From the NCBI GenBank assembly GCA_041665885.1, contig JBAYHY010000001.1:5715-69714 (forward strand): DNA of 64,000 nt, given 5' to 3'. Position 1 is the stretch's first letter, and every line of letters begins with the position of its first letter. The notes under the pieces are model-generated. The model ran no database searches and was not told where the DNA came from. It was given only the letters and a program-made list of their open reading frames with translations. A program made the position numbers and the translations under genes. The stretch comes from Minisyncoccota bacterium. Its GTDB lineage: Bacteria > Patescibacteriota > Minisyncoccia > Phycocordibacterales > UBA9973. Of the stretch, positions 9,308-60,339 are shown one piece after another.

Positions 9308-10384
9308 ATGCAAAACATCGTTTGGATAATAATTGGAATAGTCGTTGGAGCTGTCGTCGTCTATATAATTTTGAATAAGAAGAAAAAGACAGACAATAGT
9401 GACAACCCATTTTCGTTGCTTCAACAGCAGATATCGGAACTTACTCGTCAGCTTGATTCAAAACTTACTGAATCACGTAGAGACATGCAAGATGCGGTAC
9501 GTACCCAGTTTTCTGAATCACAAAAACTCTTAAAAGATATTAATGAGCAAATGAGTAAAAATCTGATTGATGTCGCACGGGAACAAACAAAAACGAACGA
9601 AGCAACTAGAGAATTTGTAACCATTGCAGAAAAACTTAGCAATCTTGAAAAGACTCTCAAACACCAAAAACAGCGAGGCAACTGGGGCGAAGCATCGCTT
9701 GAGCTTATTCTTTCAAATACCTTGGCCCCAGGACAATATAAAATGCAATATGAATTTAAGAACAAAGAAACCGTGGATGCAGTGATAATTACTAAGGAAG
9801 GAATAATTCCGATAGATGCGAAGTTTTCTTTAGACAATTACGATAGGGTTGTGCATGCTATCGACGACCGACAACGTGAAGAGCTTGAAAAAGAATTTAA
9901 AAATGATTTAAAAAAACGGATTGATGAAACTGCAAAATATGTTCGACCGGAAGAAAATACACTCCCTTTTGCTTTTATGTATATCCCCGCTGAAGCAATT
10001 TATTATGATCTGCTTGTCAACGAAGTTGGTTCAATAAAAGTTAACACAAGAAATCTAATTGATTATGCTTACAACGAAAAAAAGGTCATTATCATTTCCC
10101 CCACTACTTTTATGGCATATTTACAGTCGGTTCTATACGGTTTCAAGGCATTTAAAATTGAAGAATCTGCAAAAGAAATAATTAAAAAAGTGAATGATTT
10201 AGGTAAACACTTAGGTGCATATTCTGAATACCACGTTAAATTAGGTAATGCGATTAATACTGTTGCAAATCATTATGATAAATCAAATAAGGAATTAAAA
10301 AAAATAGATAAAGATGTGCTCAAAATCGCCGGCACCTCGCCAGAACTTTCTCTTCTTGAGATAGATAAACCAAAACTAGAATAA
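9308..10384 (+). CDS. rmuC: DNA recombination protein RmuC
   Basis: 358 aa with an N-terminal TM, a coiled coil, and the RmuC C-terminal domain (FAFMYIPAEAIYYDLL). Confidence 0.85.
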   Translation: MQNIVWIIIGIVVGAVVVYIILNKKKKTDNSDNPFSLLQQQISELTRQLDSKLTESRRDMQDAVRTQFSESQKLLKDINEQMSKNLIDVAREQTKTNEATREFVTIAEKLSNLEKTLKHQKQRGNWGEASLELILSNTLAPGQYKMQYEFKNKETVDAVIITKEGIIPIDAKFSLDNYDRVVHAIDDRQREELEKEFKNDLKKRIDETAKYVRPEENTLPFAFMYIPAEAIYYDLLVNEVGSIKVNTRNLIDYAYNEKKVIIISPTTFMAYLQSVLYGFKAFKIEESAKEIIKKVNDLGKHLGAYSEYHVKLGNAINTVANHYDKSNKELKKIDKDVLKIAGTSPELSLLEIDKPKLE

Positions 10385-10395
10385 AATTTATTATG

Positions 10396-10436
10396 TAAAA
10401 ATAAAAACGGCTAGCAGTCGTGTGAACTGCGAGCCG
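10396..10436 (-). terminator. Intrinsic terminator (CGGCTaGCAGT-loop-ACTGCgAGCCG plus U-tract on the minus strand) at the left edge of the GC-rich island
   Basis: The hairpin lies at 10408-10436. On the minus strand it is followed by TTTTTATTTTT (complement of 10397-10407). Confidence 0.6.
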
Positions 10437-10461
10437 TTGCCTGAATCCGTCAGGTGCGGGT

Positions 10462-11037
10462 TTAGTCGTAAAACCAATGGTGTCGATCACATCGGTGACA
10501 CCATCCATATCTCGTGTGATGGTGCGGATGACTAAGAGCTATTATGAGCCCTCCCGCCGCCATACTCGCCATAAATAAAAGCAACACGAGTGCTATGAAC
10601 CCCAGACAACCCCAGAAGGAAAGGTCGCCCAACCACCATGCCAAGGATATGGTCCACGGCACGTGCTGCTCTTGGCAGACCTGGGATGGAGGTAGCGGAT
10701 CGAGCGGCCTGGGTTCTGGGGTCAGCGTTGCCAAGCGATTGCCGCATGATGCTTTGTATCTCATGATGCCGTCAATGTCGACAAGAACAACCTCGCCAGC
10801 GTTCACGGTAGTCAACTCGAAAACATTTCGAGCCCGGTTGTAATTCAGAAAGTCCGTGGTAATGGCAAGCCGAGTGGGCCTGAGGCCCATGTCCGCCATC
10901 TGTCCCGCACTTAACGGACCGGACATGATCGGAAACTGATCCAAGTTAGCGCCAGCTGGAACTGTGCCAGCCACCAGCGGTGTTGCTACCGCGAGTAGCA
11001 TCATAGTCAATGCGAGAACCACCATACCGTTTTTCAT
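10462..11037 (-). CDS. Hypothetical secreted / single-pass membrane protein encoded in the GC-rich island (signal peptide, Pro-rich linker, C-terminal TM, His/Cys-rich tail)
   Basis: 191-aa ORF with a signal-peptide-like N-terminus (MKNGMVVLALTMMLLAVATPLVAG), a C-terminal hydrophobic helix and an HPHHHTRYGWCHRCDRHHW tail. It is preceded by a consensus promoter (TTGACA-18-TATAAT) and an SD (AGGAG-7-ATG) and followed by the terminator above. GC is far above the genome background. Confidence 0.5.
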   Translation of the reverse strand: MKNGMVVLALTMMLLAVATPLVAGTVPAGANLDQFPIMSGPLSAGQMADMGLRPTRLAITTDFLNYNRARNVFELTTVNAGEVVLVDIDGIMRYKASCGNRLATLTPEPRPLDPLPPSQVCQEQHVPWTISLAWWLGDLSFWGCLGFIALVLLLFMASMAAGGLIIALSHPHHHTRYGWCHRCDRHHWFYD

Positions 11038-11107
11038 CCCATTCTCCTGTCAACGTGCGAGACATTCTTTTCCCTTATTGGGATCAGCAACGCTCACCTC
11101 TCTTTAT

Positions 11108-11137
11108 ATTATATCACACTATTTACCATTTTGTCAA
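11108..11137 (-). promoter_or_regulatory. Sigma70-like promoter (TTGACA-18-TATAAT) for the island protein gene; back-to-back with the plus-strand promoter of RNA unit 1
   Basis: Minus-strand TTGACA is the complement of 11132-11137. TATAAT is the complement of 11108-11113. Confidence 0.6.
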
Positions 11138-11142
11138 GTTAT

Positions 11143-11383
11143 TGACTTTTCATTAAATCCGAATTAATGTACATTTGAACACACATCGACTTGGAAACGG
11201 ACGACATAGCCCACCTCGATAAAGACGAGAAGGACGAGGCGGAGTAAGGGCTCCCAGGGCTTCCGGTCCGCAGATGGACAACCCGCTCTAGCGTGAGAGC
11301 AACCGTTATCCTAATCTGATCGGGATTCCAAGTCATCGAACGGGCCGGCCTGCAACACGCAGGCCGGCCCATCATCATTTTTA
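11143..11383 (+). ncRNA. Candidate structured sRNA, unit 1 (promoter TTGACT-16-TAATGT, 9-bp closing stem GACUUGGAA/UUCCAAGUC, GC-rich core, intrinsic terminator)
   Basis: The -35 is at 11143-11148 and the -10 at 11165-11170. The terminator hairpin GGGCCGGCCTGC-aacac-GCAGGCCGGCCC lies at 11342-11370 and is followed by CATTTTT. The 5' and 3' ends are shared with unit 2. Confidence 0.5.
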
Positions 11384-11401
11384 ATAAATTTATTAACATT
11401 C

Positions 11402-11673
11402 TTGACTTTTTTTTAAATCCGAATTAATGTACATTTGAATATACATCGACTTGGAAGCGGGGCAGAGAATGGGAAGAATTTCCCGCCCCTCACGACGAAA
11501 CTTGTCGGCCTCTCACACGGAACACGCCGGATAGTGTCTCACGGGAAGGAATTAAATACTCTCCTTTCGGGGAAGAGAGATCGCCCGTGAATGACCTCCA
11601 ACGGTCGAAATCGTGGATTCCAAGTCACCGAATGGGCCGGCCTGCAACACGCAGGCCGGCCCACTTCATTTTT
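11402..11673 (+). ncRNA. Candidate structured sRNA, unit 2 (same promoter, closing stem and terminator as unit 1, unrelated GC-rich core)
   Basis: The -35 TTGACT is at 11402-11407 and the -10 TAATGT at 11425-11430. An identical terminator hairpin lies at 11634-11662, followed by a TTTTT tract. The core contains a GGGGCaGagaaTGGGAAgaaTTTCCCgCCCC hairpin. Confidence 0.5.
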
Positions 11674-13201
11674 ACGCAAAACCAGGGAAGAAATCGGTTT
11701 TAATATTTTTTCTTGATACTCCGATAGATTTCAAGGTATTTTCAAACGCGTCAACCATCCCCCTCGGACCGGAAATATAAAAAGTTTTATTTAAATAATT
11801 TGGAATTTCTTTCTCTATCATCCTCGCATCGATTGAACCTTTTTGCATTGATTCTTCAAATACCGCCTCCCCCTTGCCGGTAATGACATAAACTGTTTTT
11901 ATCCCTAGTTCGGCTCGCGCCCTATCGAAAACCTCCTTATAAGCAATATCCTTGGTCGTTTTATTCGAGTAAAGCAAAGTGATAGTCCTTTTTTGTTTTT
12001 TATCTAGCAAATATTTTATCATGCTACGAAATGGCGTGATACCGATACCCCCGGCAATAAACACCAAATCTTTTTCCGAGTCTTCCGGTAAAACAAAATC
12101 ACCGGATTTTTGGGCTGCGATTATTCCCCCGCCCTCCGGCATGGCAAGCAGGTGATTCTTGAAACTGCTCGGCTCCGGATAGAATTTTACTCCGAGGTGT
12201 ATTTCATCTTCTGTCGGAGATGAAGCCAGAGTAAAATATCGTCTATTCCCTCTCGTATCCGGGCTACGATGTTTGAGGGTCCACTCCATATATTGTCCGG
12301 GGCGGAAATTAAAATTTTTGTCTTTTTCAAAAATAAAATCGTAAGTGTCCACGCCGACCTTGATGCGGTCCTTCAATTTCAAAAATAATTTTTCCTTGGG
12401 GCTCACGATGTAAGCGAAAATATTTCCGATTACTAGGGCAAGCTCTGGCGTTGAATAAAATATTCCAAAATGTAGCGCTGGCGCAAATAAGAAACCGACT
12501 AGTGCACCGAAGGCGATCCGAAGCCATTTCGTGGTCGGAGCCGTCAAGGGCTCTGTGAGCATTACAAAAGCAAAGAAAAAGAACGCGGAATCCGTCATGG
12601 TCCTCATGAGAGTGGTCATGATATCCGAGCCCCTAAACATTGCCAAAACGGAAATAGTAGTGAAAGCAGAAATCAGAAAAGCAAAAAACAAGTCTGCCCG
12701 ACGAATTTTTCTGATTATCAAAAACCCACCGATCAGGACAAAAGGCAACATGTTCGGCGTCCCTATCCACCAACTAGCGGATTGATTAATCGTCAGGGCC
12801 GTGAGTGCCACCGCGAAAGCGGCGGGATTAAAAATATGTTTACCCTTGATGGCCAGAATATATTTAGACGCCATAGCCCAAACTGAAGCCCAAAAAGCAA
12901 ATGGCAAAAATTGCGAATATATCCCACTCTGAATCGGGGTAATGAGAAAAAACAAAATTAGCGCAGTTATATAAATAGATTCTGTGTTGGTAGGCGCGTC
13001 ATAAAAGAAAGAAAAAATAATATTTGTTATCCAGGATATCAACAAAATAATAAGCAGAGAGGAAATAAGATCCGTCGGACTATAGGGCAAAAAACCAAAC
13101 AATGAAAGAACCAGGGACGCACCGAAAAAAAAGATGAGGACGTATAGAACCACCCGGTACATGGTCGTTTTATTTAAAAAATTATCTACAAAATTAAGCA
13201 T
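11672..13201 (-). CDS. Membrane-bound oxidoreductase: N-terminal NqrB/RnfD-like polytopic domain fused to C-terminal ferredoxin-NADP+ reductase-like FAD/NAD(P)-binding domain
   Basis: 509 aa. The N-terminal ~300 aa are hydrophobic (HIFNPAAFAVAL, MLTEPLTAP). The C-terminus carries the RYFTLASSP (RxY[ST] FAD) motif and the GGIGITP NAD-binding motif. Confidence 0.7.
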   Translation of the reverse strand: MLNFVDNFLNKTTMYRVVLYVLIFFFGASLVLSLFGFLPYSPTDLISSLLIILLISWITNIIFSFFYDAPTNTESIYITALILFFLITPIQSGIYSQFLPFAFWASVWAMASKYILAIKGKHIFNPAAFAVALTALTINQSASWWIGTPNMLPFVLIGGFLIIRKIRRADLFFAFLISAFTTISVLAMFRGSDIMTTLMRTMTDSAFFFFAFVMLTEPLTAPTTKWLRIAFGALVGFLFAPALHFGIFYSTPELALVIGNIFAYIVSPKEKLFLKLKDRIKVGVDTYDFIFEKDKNFNFRPGQYMEWTLKHRSPDTRGNRRYFTLASSPTEDEIHLGVKFYPEPSSFKNHLLAMPEGGGIIAAQKSGDFVLPEDSEKDLVFIAGGIGITPFRSMIKYLLDKKQKRTITLLYSNKTTKDIAYKEVFDRARAELGIKTVYVITGKGEAVFEESMQKGSIDARMIEKEIPNYLNKTFYISGPRGMVDAFENTLKSIGVSRKNIKTDFFPGFA

Positions 13202-16843: not shown

Positions 16844-16871
16844 TGTTATTTTATAAATTCCCCCACAAACG

Positions 16872-17388
16872 AAAAAAGCCGTCGAGAAACTCGACAGGCC
16901 TTTGGTGATAATTTGGGTGGGGAGGTTTCCTAGTGGAAACCTCCCCTAACCCTTTTGGTCACGATGTGGCTGTGGGGGATTGATTTTTGTTTTTGCCCCG
17001 TTAGCCCGACATGGCGACCGATGTGAGAGAGCAAGTTCGCGTCCTAGACGCCATGCTCTCACGACTCCAGAAAAACAACTAATTTTTTTCAAACAGGAGC
17101 TTTTACGACCTTCCTGGGGTCAAGTTGACCCGAGCTCCTTGGTCGCCGCCGAAGCCCTCAGGCTTCGACGAAACTGGCAGTGTCGCGCGCGTTTATCACG
17201 ACTCCCTCCCTTCTAATTCTTTCTTGGGCGCTGGTTAGCGGCCCATGCCGTCGGGCTTGCGGGCGGTGGCGAAGCCGGCGATCTTGGTCTTCTTCTTCGA
17301 ATTTTCCATCTTCTCGAGGAACCGGGGGGAACCGCGAATCATGCGAGCCTCCTACCGTGATAACCAGGGACCTCCCCCAGCTATCTTC
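16872..17388 (-). ncRNA. Candidate large (~515 nt) GC-rich structured RNA of unknown class, bounded by a consensus promoter and an intrinsic terminator
   Basis: The minus-strand promoter is TTGACA(comp 17417-17422)-16-TATACT(comp 17395-17400). The terminator on the minus strand is GUCGAG-uuu-CUCGAC-GGC-UUUUUU (16877-16895). Perfect hairpins are dense throughout, e.g. GGGGAGGTTTCC-tagt-GGAAACCTCCCC, GGGTCAAGTTGACCC, AGGAGCT...AGCTCCT and GTGAGAGAGC...GCTCTCAC. GC is far above background. Confidence 0.5.
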
Positions 17389-17394
17389 CCACAC

Positions 17395-17422
17395 AGTATA
17401 GCACTACTACAAAAAATGTCAA
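17395..17422 (-). promoter_or_regulatory. Consensus sigma70-like promoter (TTGACA-16-TATACT) driving the GC-rich RNA candidate
   Basis: The -35 and -10 hexamers are seen directly as complements of tgtcaa (17417-17422) and agtata (17395-17400). Confidence 0.6.
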
Positions 17423-57090: not shown

Positions 57091-60000
57091 CTAGGGCGCT
57101 GGTTCCGTCGGGGGTTCCGGGGCTGGGTCAGCAGGGGCTGGGTCAGCGCAAACATTATTTACAAGTACCTGTGGAGCAACACATGTCGGGACGACTGGCG
57201 CGGGATCAGTGCAGGCGCCATCTACCAGGATTTGTGGAGCGGTGCAAACAGGCACTTCGGGAGCTGGGTCTACACATACATTGTCCACCAGGACTTGTGG
57301 AGCAACACAAGCAGGGGTGATAGGGACAACGCTTCCACCACCAGCACCCACCATCGCCTCAAGGGTGTCACCATTTGCGCAGAATTCCGTACCATCCGCT
57401 TTTGCCACACAAAGCTCTTTCGTATGAACACGATTGGCAAAGAAGTCCCCTATCCCATTCGTAGCATCTGCGAGCCAGGTACCCATGTTGGCAAAGAAAG
57501 CTGTCACGAAAGATTCGGAAGTGGAACCGGGTTCAGGGATAACTGTTCCGGCAATTCCTTCCAAGTTCAAATTGAGTTCCTTCACGGCATTAACGGTCGT
57601 GGCTAAAATAGCGTTTGTATCTAGGCCATAAGGATTCCCCAAGGAGTCATGGGTGGCCAATTCCGGAGCGACGGAATTTACTTCTTCAGAAATAAATCCG
57701 AAATGAATCGCATCGCCCATATTCATGTCCGGTTTGAATGTATACGAAACAGGACGAAGAGCCATCAGATTCGCCAAGCTGTCGGACAAATCATCGATGC
57801 TGTCCTTGAAACGTTCCGATGAAGGAGTACAAATAATGTTCCCGGAAACATCCACCGAGATAGTCCCGGCCGTGGTGCATCCCGCTTGTTGGATTACTCC
57901 CGCATTCGTCACACTAAACTTACTTACCCCTCCTACCTGTGCATCAATTAAATTCCCGCTTGTCTTTGCGGTAGGGTTGATTAAAAAATCTGTGAGAGCG
58001 GAAGAATCTGCTTTTACTAAATGCAATTGTGCTGTCGGTGCTGTTATCCCGATACCGACACTGCCGTTGTTTAGAATCGTCATCGCTGTCGTTCCAGCAC
58101 TTTCTCCCACCTTTAAAATAAGGTTTGCATTGGTCAAAGTATTTCCGGTAGTATTGTTGCCCTGTAAGGTCAGGGTGCCGTTCGCCACCGTTGAACCATT
58201 GACCAATGGGTCAGTAATTGACGTCGTAAAGGTCGGAGAATTTAGACGGACAAAATTCCCAGTCCCCGTGCCCGTGTATTCCGCCGAAGTGAGGTGGTAA
58301 TATTGATCCGCACTCCCTCCCTGCAACCCTACGAGTTGATTATGACGAACAACCATCGGAGTGTGAAAGTGAGTATAATTGGCTGTTCCATTATGTACTA
58401 GGCTAACTGTCGTATTCGATGTCCTTGTTGTTCGTCCATAAAATTTAACCACCAACCTGTCTGTAGGATTAATAGCAAAGGCCGGCTGCACGGTTGTGAC
58501 TGAAGCCAAAAATACTGAGGTAGAATTAATATCTGGAGTCTCTGTCGTAAACAAAAGCGTTTCCACTCCTCCCGAGTCTCTCTTGTAAACCTCTGCCCTG
58601 ATGACTGATATTTGGACTGTGCTACTTAAATATCCATAGATGTCAAATTGCCACACTCCAGCCTCTATGGAAGTACTTCCCAACCCGAGAGGTGAAGAAG
58701 CATATGATTCAATCAACGCTGTGCTGTTGTTCACAACAACAGAATCGACAATTTGAGGAAGACTAGTCGGGGCGGGGGTCAGGGTAACGTACGACGGAAT
58801 ATCGGAGGCAGTATCGTCTAAATAAAAACTGACTCCGGCGCCACCACTTACCGTATCTGGATTTACATTCACCCAGGTACTGCCATTATATGCCAAGACC
58901 TGGTTTGCGGTGGGTGTCAGTGCCCCAACGTCGGAAAGGTTCGCTAGTCCTATTTGTGTGCCATCAATTCTAAACAAGGACCCTGACGATAAATTCAAAT
59001 CCCCCGCTACGTCTAATTTATACCCGGGTACAATTGTTCCAATCCCGACTCTATGATTTACTGAATCCACAAAAAGAGAATTAGTGTCCACCGTTAAACT
59101 ATGAGCTCCTAAATCTACATTTGAAGTTCCCCCAGTAAAAGGAACATACGAGGAGAGACTACCCGTCGTTGCGAATGCACTCGCATGATTGCCATCCAAC
59201 ATATCTGCATTAAGATTAGAAACAAGGGTAGTCGAGGCGATAGACAATGGAGCCGTACCTGTCGCTATTGCAGACTTCAAAGTATTCCCGCGCACTTCAC
59301 CAGTATCTCCATCGAGCCAGGCTGAAGAAGTAGAGCCATTGTTTGTCTCAATATGACTCGGAGTGATGAGAGAGAGATGCCCTGTCCCATCTGTATAATT
59401 CATACCGCCAAGAAAGCCCCCCAACATGAACGAAAGGTTTTGATTTTGTGTAGGATCAGATGAATCGTTGTAAGAAAGACTAATATTGTTCGTGGCTACT
59501 GTCGTAGCTTGTGTAACCGTACCAATCGTCTGTAAAAAAGTTAAATTATTCTGAGCAAGAGAAGTGTAGTCGGTACTTGGAGTTCCGAAAAATACATTGC
59601 CGGGCTTGATTGACCCGCTGGTTGTTAAATCATTTACTCCCAAATCCACATCCCCCGTCGCCCCGGTGTAAGGCACCAGGCCAGACAAATCAGGAATACT
59701 GCCAACTGGTCCCCAGGCTGTACCATTAAAATATTTGTAAGTATTGGTAGTGGTGTCGTAAGAGAGATCTCCGGCCACTCCTGTAGGCAGTGAAGCAGTA
59801 GGAAAACCTGTGCTGTTGAAATATTTTGCCGTTAGTTTGTTTCCACCCAAAGCGACATCCCCCGTCGCCCCAGTGTAATGTAAAACATCATCAGATAAAT
59901 CATGTATCGTGTCATTGATTGAATCATATATTGCAGCCACTTGATTATCAAAGAAAGATTTAGAAACAAAAGAAGATGTGTTGATGCTCCCTCCCCCCGA

Positions 60001-60339
60001 TGAACCTTGAGGGCCTGCTGGACCTACGGGACCCTGCGCGCCAGTCGGGCCGACTGGACCACGGGGACCTGTTGGACCTGAAATTCCTTGAGAACCCTGC
60101 GCGCCAGGAGCAGCAACTTGAATCACCGGAGATGGGACATTTGTTTTTATGGGCGCTATACTTGAGGGAACGACCACTTCAAACACAAATGGAGAAATGA
60201 GATTTTTATATGCATCGACTAAATATGTAAAAGGATTGAAAGCTAGGGCTGGAGTGGCAAAAGAAAAAGTGGCCGATAGAAAGAATATCGAGATTAAAAA
60301 CTTTTTTATAAATAATATAAAACTTTTCTTTTTTAACAT
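57091..60339 (-). CDS. Large secreted fibre protein: signal peptide, collagen-like GXY repeats, long beta-rich Gly/Thr/Ser/Asn stalk, C-terminal intramolecular-chaperone (peptidase S74-like) domain and Cys-containing C-terminal repeats
   Basis: 1082 aa. The N-terminus is MLKKKSFILFIKKFLISIFFLSATFSFATPALA. A GXY run follows (GAQGSQGISGPTGPRGPVGPTGAQGPVGPAGPQG). Near the C-terminus, SSERFKDSIDDL...LRPVSYTFK...HFGFISEEV matches the tail-fibre/endosialidase chaperone signature. Three C(V/T)APQ(V/I)LVD..C.DPAP repeats follow. Confidence 0.65.
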   Translation of the reverse strand: MLKKKSFILFIKKFLISIFFLSATFSFATPALAFNPFTYLVDAYKNLISPFVFEVVVPSSIAPIKTNVPSPVIQVAAPGAQGSQGISGPTGPRGPVGPTGAQGPVGPAGPQGSSGGGSINTSSFVSKSFFDNQVAAIYDSINDTIHDLSDDVLHYTGATGDVALGGNKLTAKYFNSTGFPTASLPTGVAGDLSYDTTTNTYKYFNGTAWGPVGSIPDLSGLVPYTGATGDVDLGVNDLTTSGSIKPGNVFFGTPSTDYTSLAQNNLTFLQTIGTVTQATTVATNNISLSYNDSSDPTQNQNLSFMLGGFLGGMNYTDGTGHLSLITPSHIETNNGSTSSAWLDGDTGEVRGNTLKSAIATGTAPLSIASTTLVSNLNADMLDGNHASAFATTGSLSSYVPFTGGTSNVDLGAHSLTVDTNSLFVDSVNHRVGIGTIVPGYKLDVAGDLNLSSGSLFRIDGTQIGLANLSDVGALTPTANQVLAYNGSTWVNVNPDTVSGGAGVSFYLDDTASDIPSYVTLTPAPTSLPQIVDSVVVNNSTALIESYASSPLGLGSTSIEAGVWQFDIYGYLSSTVQISVIRAEVYKRDSGGVETLLFTTETPDINSTSVFLASVTTVQPAFAINPTDRLVVKFYGRTTRTSNTTVSLVHNGTANYTHFHTPMVVRHNQLVGLQGGSADQYYHLTSAEYTGTGTGNFVRLNSPTFTTSITDPLVNGSTVANGTLTLQGNNTTGNTLTNANLILKVGESAGTTAMTILNNGSVGIGITAPTAQLHLVKADSSALTDFLINPTAKTSGNLIDAQVGGVSKFSVTNAGVIQQAGCTTAGTISVDVSGNIICTPSSERFKDSIDDLSDSLANLMALRPVSYTFKPDMNMGDAIHFGFISEEVNSVAPELATHDSLGNPYGLDTNAILATTVNAVKELNLNLEGIAGTVIPEPGSTSESFVTAFFANMGTWLADATNGIGDFFANRVHTKELCVAKADGTEFCANGDTLEAMVGAGGGSVVPITPACVAPQVLVDNVCVDPAPEVPVCTAPQILVDGACTDPAPVVPTCVAPQVLVNNVCADPAPADPAPEPPTEPAP

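Follow-up and report, generated by a model that had tools for sequence, protein, structure and literature searches.

The stretch analyzed here, 64,000 nucleotides (nt) of a contig from a Minisyncoccota bacterium (JBAYHY010000001.1; below, the window), raises the question of what a compact GC-rich block at positions 10396-11675 is doing between two host genes of an AT-rich genome. An earlier note, made from the letters alone, had taken the block both for horizontally acquired DNA and for a single undescribed system, a surface protein with dedicated RNAs. Horizontal acquisition is supported by GC content, by GC at third codon positions (GC3), and by presence/absence polymorphism; the single system did not hold up at other loci of the protein's family. 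In the reading that we favor, with a little more confidence than doubt, three autonomous promoter-to-terminator cassettes, one for a 191-amino-acid (aa) membrane protein and two for plus-strand RNA units, make up a foreign islet at a Patescibacteria insertion hot spot, where they are neighbors and not an obligate system.

A GC-rich islet downstream of rmuC

A windowed GC calculation confirmed the compositional shift on which the earlier note was built. Among the 1,280-nt windows of the 64 kb, the block ranked first, at 50.7% GC against a mean of 40.3% (standard deviation, 3.1%); the 191-aa open reading frame (ORF) has 53.8%, RNA unit 1 has 57.1%, and RNA unit 2 has 54.4%, while the 300-nt windows flanking the block have 31 to 38%. 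The 55 to 60% estimated earlier applies to 10500-11100 only and is too high for the block as a whole. Codon usage likewise bears out the foreign composition: GC3 of the 191-aa ORF is 0.59, more than 4 standard deviations above that of the window's 41 ORFs of at least 200 aa (0.388 ± 0.045; maximum, 0.463). The foreign-looking stretch spans ∼1.29 kb, bounded by the 3′ ends of rmuC (9308-10384, plus strand) and an RnfD/FNR-type flavoprotein gene (11672-13201, minus strand), host genes that converge on it.

In this clade the 3′ end of rmuC is a hot spot at which insertion or replacement recurs. A GC-rich islet lies within 1.2 kb downstream of rmuC in 15 of 72 related genomes, versus 17 of 436 background blocks (3.9%; odds ratio, 6.5; p = 4e-6). 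The cargo at this site varies between genomes and consists mostly of small secreted, lipoprotein-like, or transmembrane (TM) proteins. Relatives of the 191-aa protein fill the site on contigs L002, L042, and L019, and on L032 the same rmuC/flavoprotein junction holds another cassette, which encodes a 149-aa secreted protein. Horizontal gene transfer is reportedly frequent in Patescibacteria and takes place mostly within the phylum (PMC12455944).

Two contigs from other data sets, L001 (Logan) and L003 (JGI), carry the block joined to rmuC with 100% identity over the RNA units. Because these independent assemblies hold identical sequence, the block is no assembly artifact; the break of the L001 contig falls exactly at the repeated terminator. 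By their NCBI names, RmuC and the flavoprotein belong to Candidatus Paceibacterota. The 80 RmuC loci closest to that of the window in GTDB genomes all belong to Patescibacteria (labeled Paceibacterota, Nomurabacteria, Lloydbacteria, or Kaiserbacteria), and the 90%-identity clusters of RmuC and of the flavoprotein are singletons. In two metagenome-assembled genome (MAG) records, RmuC and the flavoprotein have consecutive accessions (MFA6300968/67 and MFA6510859/60), and for this reason the whole block is probably unannotated in the NCBI MAG records; the sources of the 191-aa protein are JGI and ENA only.

The genes flanking the block encode RmuC, an exonuclease, the flavoprotein, ApbE, a sigma factor, Obg, and GatB. 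Within ±10 kb we found no integrase, transposase, reverse transcriptase, recombinase, or phage/prophage gene, in agreement with the earlier note's statement that neither an integrase or transposase nor a prophage was present, and no gene for Cas, TnpB, or IscB. The block has no flanking direct repeats beyond chance, and the nearest tRNA is ∼4.7 kb away. At the right edge the islet abuts the host gene without a spacer, the stop codon of the flavoprotein gene (11672-11674) lying inside the U-run of the unit 2 terminator. On the left, a DEDDh exonuclease and RmuC form a pair (8587-10384) that is kept in the relatives in which the upstream gene was read (L003 and L042). Their PADLOC matches, to “DEDDh (Cas-associated)” and “RTasRmuC (DRT),” look like generic domain homology and not like evidence of a defense system. 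Since rmuC and its exonuclease partner are conserved in all 80 related genomes, we regard them as housekeeping genes.

The minus-strand gene and its protein family

The elements that had been read on the minus strand, TTGACA-18-TATAAT, an AGGAG Shine-Dalgarno sequence, a 191-aa ORF, and an intrinsic terminator, were all borne out. The promoter (TTGACA-18-TG-TATAAT, 11108-11137) is the sole 12/12 sigma-70 match in the window and is conserved on L002. Its −35 box (11132-11137) stands back to back with that of the plus-strand promoter (11142-11147), which locates the divergent pair described earlier. A 5′ untranslated region (UTR) of ∼64 nt (11038-11101) contains a hairpin with the tip CCC-AAUAA-GGG, predicted alike for the window and L002 (z-scores, −2.2 and −2.6), and the Shine-Dalgarno sequence 8 nt ahead of the ATG. 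The coding sequence (10462-11037) is followed by a terminator (10396-10438) made up of an inverted repeat (10406-10418/10426-10438) and a T-run; the repeat gives a 13-bp stem with one mismatch (92% complementary) and a 7-nt loop, is predicted as the terminal hairpin, and is kept on L002. Between the two 5′UTRs identity is 86%, and between the 3′UTRs it is 82%. In direct comparison with L002, one 22-nt block between stop codon and terminator, CCGCACCTGACGGATTCAGGCA (10438-10459), is 100% identical, versus ∼60 to 70% for the coding sequence (57% for the protein). It is predicted to form a small 5-bp hairpin (CCUGA/UCAGG) and may be a 3′UTR regulatory site.

Could the frame be a chance ORF in GC-rich DNA, the alternative that the earlier note had left standing? 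The L002 orthologue P0002, whose gene is likewise convergent to rmuC, is 57% identical, and the nucleotide differences between the two genes fall at codon positions 1, 2, and 3 in the proportion 55/47/93, a third-position bias. Changed codons in the conserved domain comprise 27 synonymous and 21 nonsynonymous cases. Together with 169 relatives, a conserved C-terminal motif, and confident AlphaFold2 (AF2) models, this orthologue and this codon-position pattern rule out a chance ORF; by its pattern of conservation, the ORF is a genuine gene with a conserved frame under purifying selection. At 718-765 on L002 an in-frame TAA stands in place of the window's TAT (Tyr) and is directly followed by an intact in-frame GWCHRCGRHHWF tail; possible explanations of the TAA are recent nonsense mutation, sequencing error, and read-through.

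The layout proposed for the protein was recovered in the family alignment, which contains the signal peptide, the Pro-rich linker, and the TM segment, and its His/Cys-rich tail proved to be a conserved motif. A predicted Sec signal peptide (residues 1 to 24) precedes a beta-rich ectodomain of ∼85 aa (25 to 108), a Pro-rich, low-complexity linker, an amphipathic helix plus TM helix (128 to 169), and a beta-hairpin tail, RYGWCHRCDRHHWF, predicted to be cytoplasmic. Y94, C98, and N100 of the ectodomain are invariant in the family alignment (motif RYKxxCGNR). Members of the closest subgroup share the tail ending [RY]xWCxxCxxHH[WY]F, whose CxxC..HH arrangement probably binds metal (zinc). We considered whether the tail might be read-through into the 3′UTR hairpin, a possibility ruled out by the conserved WCxxCxxHH[WY]F motif in relatives. 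AF2 modeled the full protein with a predicted local distance difference test (pLDDT) score of 87 and the domain alone with 92.7; the domain model has a short helix followed by six strands, and the full model has a TM helix at 141 to 169 and a C-terminal beta-hairpin. The fold of the ectodomain model weakly suggests an SH3-like domain, and the bacterial SH3-like (SH3b) cell wall-binding domains of NlpC/P60 enzymes and endolysins are among its closest known counterparts. A PDB sequence-profile search with the ectodomain gave no match, and the protein is absent from the Pfam, NCBIfam, and PADLOC models. At the sub-threshold level, 14 of 40 family members match DUF6777 (PF20568) over the ectodomain at E ≤ 0.01 (best, 3e-6); the window protein itself, in contrast, has no match at E ≤ 0.1, and four listed relatives score 17.8 to 21.1 bits against a gathering threshold of 27. 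The Pfam entry is itself without known function, and no mention of DUF6777 was found in the literature.

The relatives were collected with HMMER, run exhaustively against 1.84 billion cluster representatives: at E ≤ 1e-3 there were 169, 74 of them at E ≤ 1e-10. A metagenome scan with the protein family, over a set without the source sample, returned two loci only. The family is uncharacterized, and the sampled members, judged by the genes around them, are all in Patescibacteria-like contexts. Each family contig that was read has Patescibacteria-like housekeeping surroundings, at a different site each time. Away from rmuC, members lie in the KhpA/S16 gap (L112), just upstream of TrmD in the S16-KH to TrmD cluster (L109), and after the genes for UvrB (L111), UvrC (L113 and L114), UvrD (L108), and L21 (L087). 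In ten other contexts examined, GC of the family gene was 0.50 to 0.67 versus 0.34 to 0.47 for the host (L108: 0.62 versus 0.55). GC3 was 0.59 to 0.77 versus 0.29 to 0.42 in the rmuC-adjacent cases and on L087, and near host values on L084, L108, and L109. A TTGACA/TATAAT-type promoter and a hairpin terminator of its own accompany every family gene examined; the family's behavior is that of a self-contained, mobile promoter-gene-terminator cassette. Other small GC-rich genes occur around family genes (L042 5640-5920, 6960-7190, and 8726-9025; L087 8955-9118); they encode 54 to 99 aa, several with a TM helix, and have their own promoter, Shine-Dalgarno sequence, and terminator.

We propose that this first cassette would produce, from its consensus promoter, a type I membrane protein with a cleaved signal peptide: a small, weakly SH3-like beta-barrel ectodomain would face outward on a Pro-rich stalk, one TM helix would anchor it, and the CxxC..HH hairpin would lie in the cytoplasm. 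Such a protein may serve in envelope binding or recognition, with the cell wall, a host-cell surface, or phage as possible partners. Patescibacteria are ultra-small episymbionts, in which attachment to the host and susceptibility to phage are probably determined by surface proteins. An uncharacterized envelope-protein family has thus been identified that forms a self-contained GC-rich cassette in nearly every context, and its recurrence at housekeeping-gene junctions offers a testable handle on how surface repertoires are renewed in streamlined genomes without obvious mobile elements.

Anatomy of the two plus-strand RNA units

Two tandem promoter-to-terminator RNA units had been described on the plus strand, and the units, their repeats, and their terminators stand. 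The claim of consensus promoters does not: both putative promoters read TTGACT-17-TAATGT (11142-11170 and 11402-11430), match sigma-70 at 8/12 positions, and were not called by the promoter scan. On the basis of the letters they are plausible promoters. A palindrome, AATGTACATT (11166-11175 in unit 1, with its counterpart in unit 2), overlaps the −10 box and position +1 and is a possible operator.

Unit 1 (∼205 nt, 11177-11381), delimited by fold predictions and repeats, begins with a single-stranded 5′ leader and is closed by a 9-bp stem pairing 11188-11196 with 11326-11334 around a GC-rich interior of 129 nt; the linker that follows (7 nt) leads to the terminator, a GC stem of 12 bp (11342-11370), and its U-run. 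Unit 2 (∼237 nt, 11437-11673) has the same kind of leader, a closing stem pairing 11448-11456 with 11618-11626, a 161-nt interior, and a terminator at 11633-11663 that the scan called. A 73-nt 5′ block is common to both units at 85% identity and comprises the promoter, the palindrome, a 10-nt leader, and the arm GACUUGGAA. The common 3′ block (49 nt, 96% identity) holds the arm UUCCAAGUC, the linker, a GC hairpin of 12 to 13 bp, and the U-run. The 9-bp clamp GACUUGGAA/UUCCAAGUC is present in every predicted fold of both units. Their interiors (129 versus 161 nt) are not detectably homologous, with alignment scores below the shuffle mean. Identical flanks around unrelated interiors are the one truly unexplained feature of the RNA units.

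To call these RNAs structured, as the earlier note did, overstates the case. With the terminator, fold z-scores were −5.5 (unit 1) and −4.8 (unit 2), and the bodies alone scored −2.5 and −1.6; most of the folding signal thus belongs to the terminator. Enrichment of GGA (CsrA-type) motifs was not convincing (p = 0.12 and 0.02), and complementarity between the RNAs and the window was no better than chance.

Searches for homologues were uniformly negative. No Rfam family reached threshold in an E-value search of the block or in a gathering-threshold search of the window, and the best match, PtaRNA1 (RF01811), scored 30.9 and 21.7 bits against a gathering threshold of 47 and covered essentially only the GC terminator hairpin. 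In keeping with the unknown function named in the earlier note, the protein is missing from Pfam, NCBIfam, and PADLOC and the RNAs from Rfam. The DNA patterns of the RNA blocks, exact and gapped, had zero matches in IMG/VR; the block had no match in phage and viral collections, nor did the RNA region by blastn against phages and plasmids. An arm-gap-arm pattern had 19 matches in viral contigs, all of which were chance matches inside coding DNA. By blastn, nhmmer, and tblastx the units matched nothing in 1.3 Mb of sequence from related and family loci, and arms, blocks, and interiors were not found again in the window or in 1.3 Mb of related loci. Antisense ORFs across the conserved 3′ block had no match among 5.8 billion proteins.

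At 9019-9250 of L084, directly downstream of a family member, lies another stand-alone promoter-to-terminator RNA. It is predicted to be rod-like, with a large central bubble and a 5′-3′ closing stem (z-score, −6.5), and has no Rfam match; its shape is reminiscent of 6S RNA. It has no sequence in common with the window units.

Readings of the islet and likeness to known systems

Do the RNAs serve the protein? That all three parts are one functional, cotransferred system, in which the RNAs would regulate or serve the surface protein, would fit their adjacency, the 20-bp core common to the divergent promoters, and the similar GC of the three parts (54 to 57%), and a family member on L084 is immediately followed by an unrelated structured RNA that stands alone. 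We nevertheless consider this quite unlikely. L002 keeps the promoter, UTRs, coding sequence, and terminator next to rmuC, yet lacks the RNA units; AT-rich, host-like sequence with a short opposite-strand reading frame begins there ∼15 nt beyond the −35 box. The units are also missing at the same-site homologues on L042 and L019, which have other neighbors, and at seven other family loci (L084, L087, L108, L109, L111, L112, and L113), predicted unit-mRNA duplexes were no better than those with shuffled targets, and the L084 RNA is unlike the window units in sequence. A second possibility, doubtful but with an appreciable chance of being right, is that the plus-strand units are nonfunctional, either duplicated promoter/terminator shells left by cassette turnover or two insertions like miniature inverted-repeat transposable elements (MITEs), with the arms ACTTGGAA/TTCCAAGT as terminal inverted repeats and flanking CATCG as a target site duplication. 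Near-identical flanks around unrelated interiors agree with this, as do the weak structural z-scores of the bodies, the lack of a homologue in any collection searched, and a degenerate copy of the divergent −35 box in unit 2, which implies segmental duplication. CATCG stands on both sides of the arms in unit 1, and CATCG and CACCG flank those in unit 2, which counts as a single observation because the two units are paralogous. However, the arms and interiors occur nowhere else in the window and no transposase lies within ±10 kb, the interiors hold 54 to 57% GC in a 40% GC genome, and the retention of promoter, palindrome, stem, and terminator in both copies argues for selection on expression.

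The 5′-3′ closing stem around a 130- to 160-nt insert resembles retron noncoding RNA, in which such a stem encloses a structured insert, and the inverted arms are like those of invertons. The units might on these grounds be templates or guides, namely, a retron-like msr/msd with an a1/a2 stem, a guide RNA, or invertible segments with 9-bp inverted repeats, and the match of rmuC to the PADLOC “RTasRmuC” model could be counted in favor. We give this hardly any credence: the gene inventory within ±10 kb includes no reverse transcriptase, Cas, TnpB, IscB, or recombinase gene, rmuC and the exonuclease are present in all 80 related genomes and the PADLOC match is generic RmuC homology, the orientation is the same in three assemblies, and each unit has its own terminator. 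Scarcely better are the chances that the units encode small peptides (TTG-started frames of 18 and 27 aa from the 5′ arm or a 21-aa ATG frame in unit 2). Short frames are present, and neighboring islets in relatives carry GC-rich genes of 54 to 99 aa with their own promoters, but no candidate frame is plausible or preceded by a Shine-Dalgarno sequence, the peptides of the two units have nothing in common beyond “ME,” and neither tblastx nor the protein databases returned a match.

Of the possible readings of the units, we prefer lineage-specific, trans-acting small RNAs (sRNAs) with a common stabilizing scaffold, because promoter, palindrome, clamp, and terminator are kept in both copies and the interiors have 54 to 57% GC in a 40% GC genome. 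The second and third cassettes would then be paralogous noncoding units under identical promoters that a repressor probably controls (palindrome over −10/+1), with every transcript clamped by the 9-bp 5′-3′ stem and ending in the common strong terminator. With the protein gene they would form an islet inserted between the convergent rmuC and RnfD/FNR-like flavoprotein genes of a Candidatus Paceibacterota genome, the three cassettes probably being independent inserts acquired by recombination from GC-richer Patescibacteria. Several points weigh against this favored account. The plus-strand −10 box matches at only 3/6 positions, promoters and start sites of transcription are predicted ones, the bodies of the RNAs exceed shuffles in stability only marginally (−2.5 and −1.6), and the units are without a homologue in all collections searched. 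The block also has neither flanking repeats nor mobility genes. Moreover, a lasting GC excess across many hosts could come from selection and not from repeated transfer.

There is also a small chance that the locus exemplifies an undescribed class, chromosomal moron-like mini-cassettes together with a modular RNA “expression scaffold” that takes exchangeable noncoding cargo. If so, mini-cassettes of consensus promoter, cargo, and strong terminator would stay GC-rich in AT-rich genomes without mobility genes and be swapped at hot spots, the 3′ end of rmuC among them, thereby diversifying the cell envelope. One scaffold of promoter, operator, 9-bp clamp, and terminator would have received unrelated GC-rich inserts of ∼130 to 160 nt and would act in a sequence-specific way, for example as a guide, a decoy, or a memory. 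The pair of orphan RNA units, alike in scaffold and unrelated in their interiors, is an oddity, a lead and not a discovery.

Among known systems, phage morons (e.g., HK97 gene 15) are the closest analogy for the islet cassettes. A moron has its own promoter and terminator and deviant GC (PMC3594210). The islet is alike in having a sigma-70 promoter and an intrinsic terminator for each cassette, GC unlike that of its neighbors, a position wedged between conserved genes, a small membrane or envelope protein as cargo, and presence or absence that varies between related genomes. Unlike a moron, it lies in a Patescibacteria chromosome with housekeeping flanks and not in a prophage, two of its three cassettes are noncoding, and its protein family recurs as a GC-rich cassette at many unrelated chromosomal sites. 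The flexible genomic islands and hypervariable regions that homologous recombination replaces in streamlined bacteria, and the genomic islands of Patescibacteria (PMC12455944), likewise occupy hot spots between core genes and carry variable envelope-related cargo without an integrase; the islet differs in being very small (0.6 to 2 kb), GC-richer and not AT-richer than its host, and composed of single-gene, self-contained units. Of the features of a classical genomic island, it has deviant composition and presence/absence polymorphism but lacks mobility genes, tRNA adjacency, and direct repeats.

For the RNA units, OmrA and OmrB provide a comparison, being tandem sRNA paralogues with conserved 5′ and 3′ ends and divergent centers. 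The window units are likewise adjacent duplicated, putative sRNA genes with conserved ends, different centers, and a promoter and terminator each, but their ends pair into a clamp, they are 2 to 3 times longer, and their interiors have no residual homology. Both units have a 9-bp stem equivalent to the a1/a2-type end pairing of a retron, a feature that is not retron specific, and neither has an adjacent same-strand reverse transcriptase gene; unit 2 adjoins the 3′ end of the convergent flavoprotein gene. The multiple dispersed copies of a MITE are missing from the window and from 1.3 Mb of related loci. An inverton is not indicated, with one orientation in three assemblies and no recombinase within ±10 kb.

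Elsewhere in the window, a second GC-rich (∼52%), gene-poor islet (16870-17422, minus strand) separates tRNA-Glu from the gene for an ArsP-like permease. Its promoter at 17422 (TTGACA-16-TATACT) matches at 11/12, so that two of the four best promoters of the window belong to GC-rich islets, and its terminator is at 16897-16879; the predicted transcript of ∼500 nt contains a Shine-Dalgarno-led 35-aa ORF (MIRGSPRFLEKMENSKKK...) and has no Rfam match. The third GC-rich spot, at 57091-60339 on the minus strand, holds a gene for a 1,082-aa protein with a signal peptide, collagen-like GPxG repeats, and a Pro/Ala-rich C terminus with repeated “C(T/V)APQ(I/V)LV(D/N)” units.

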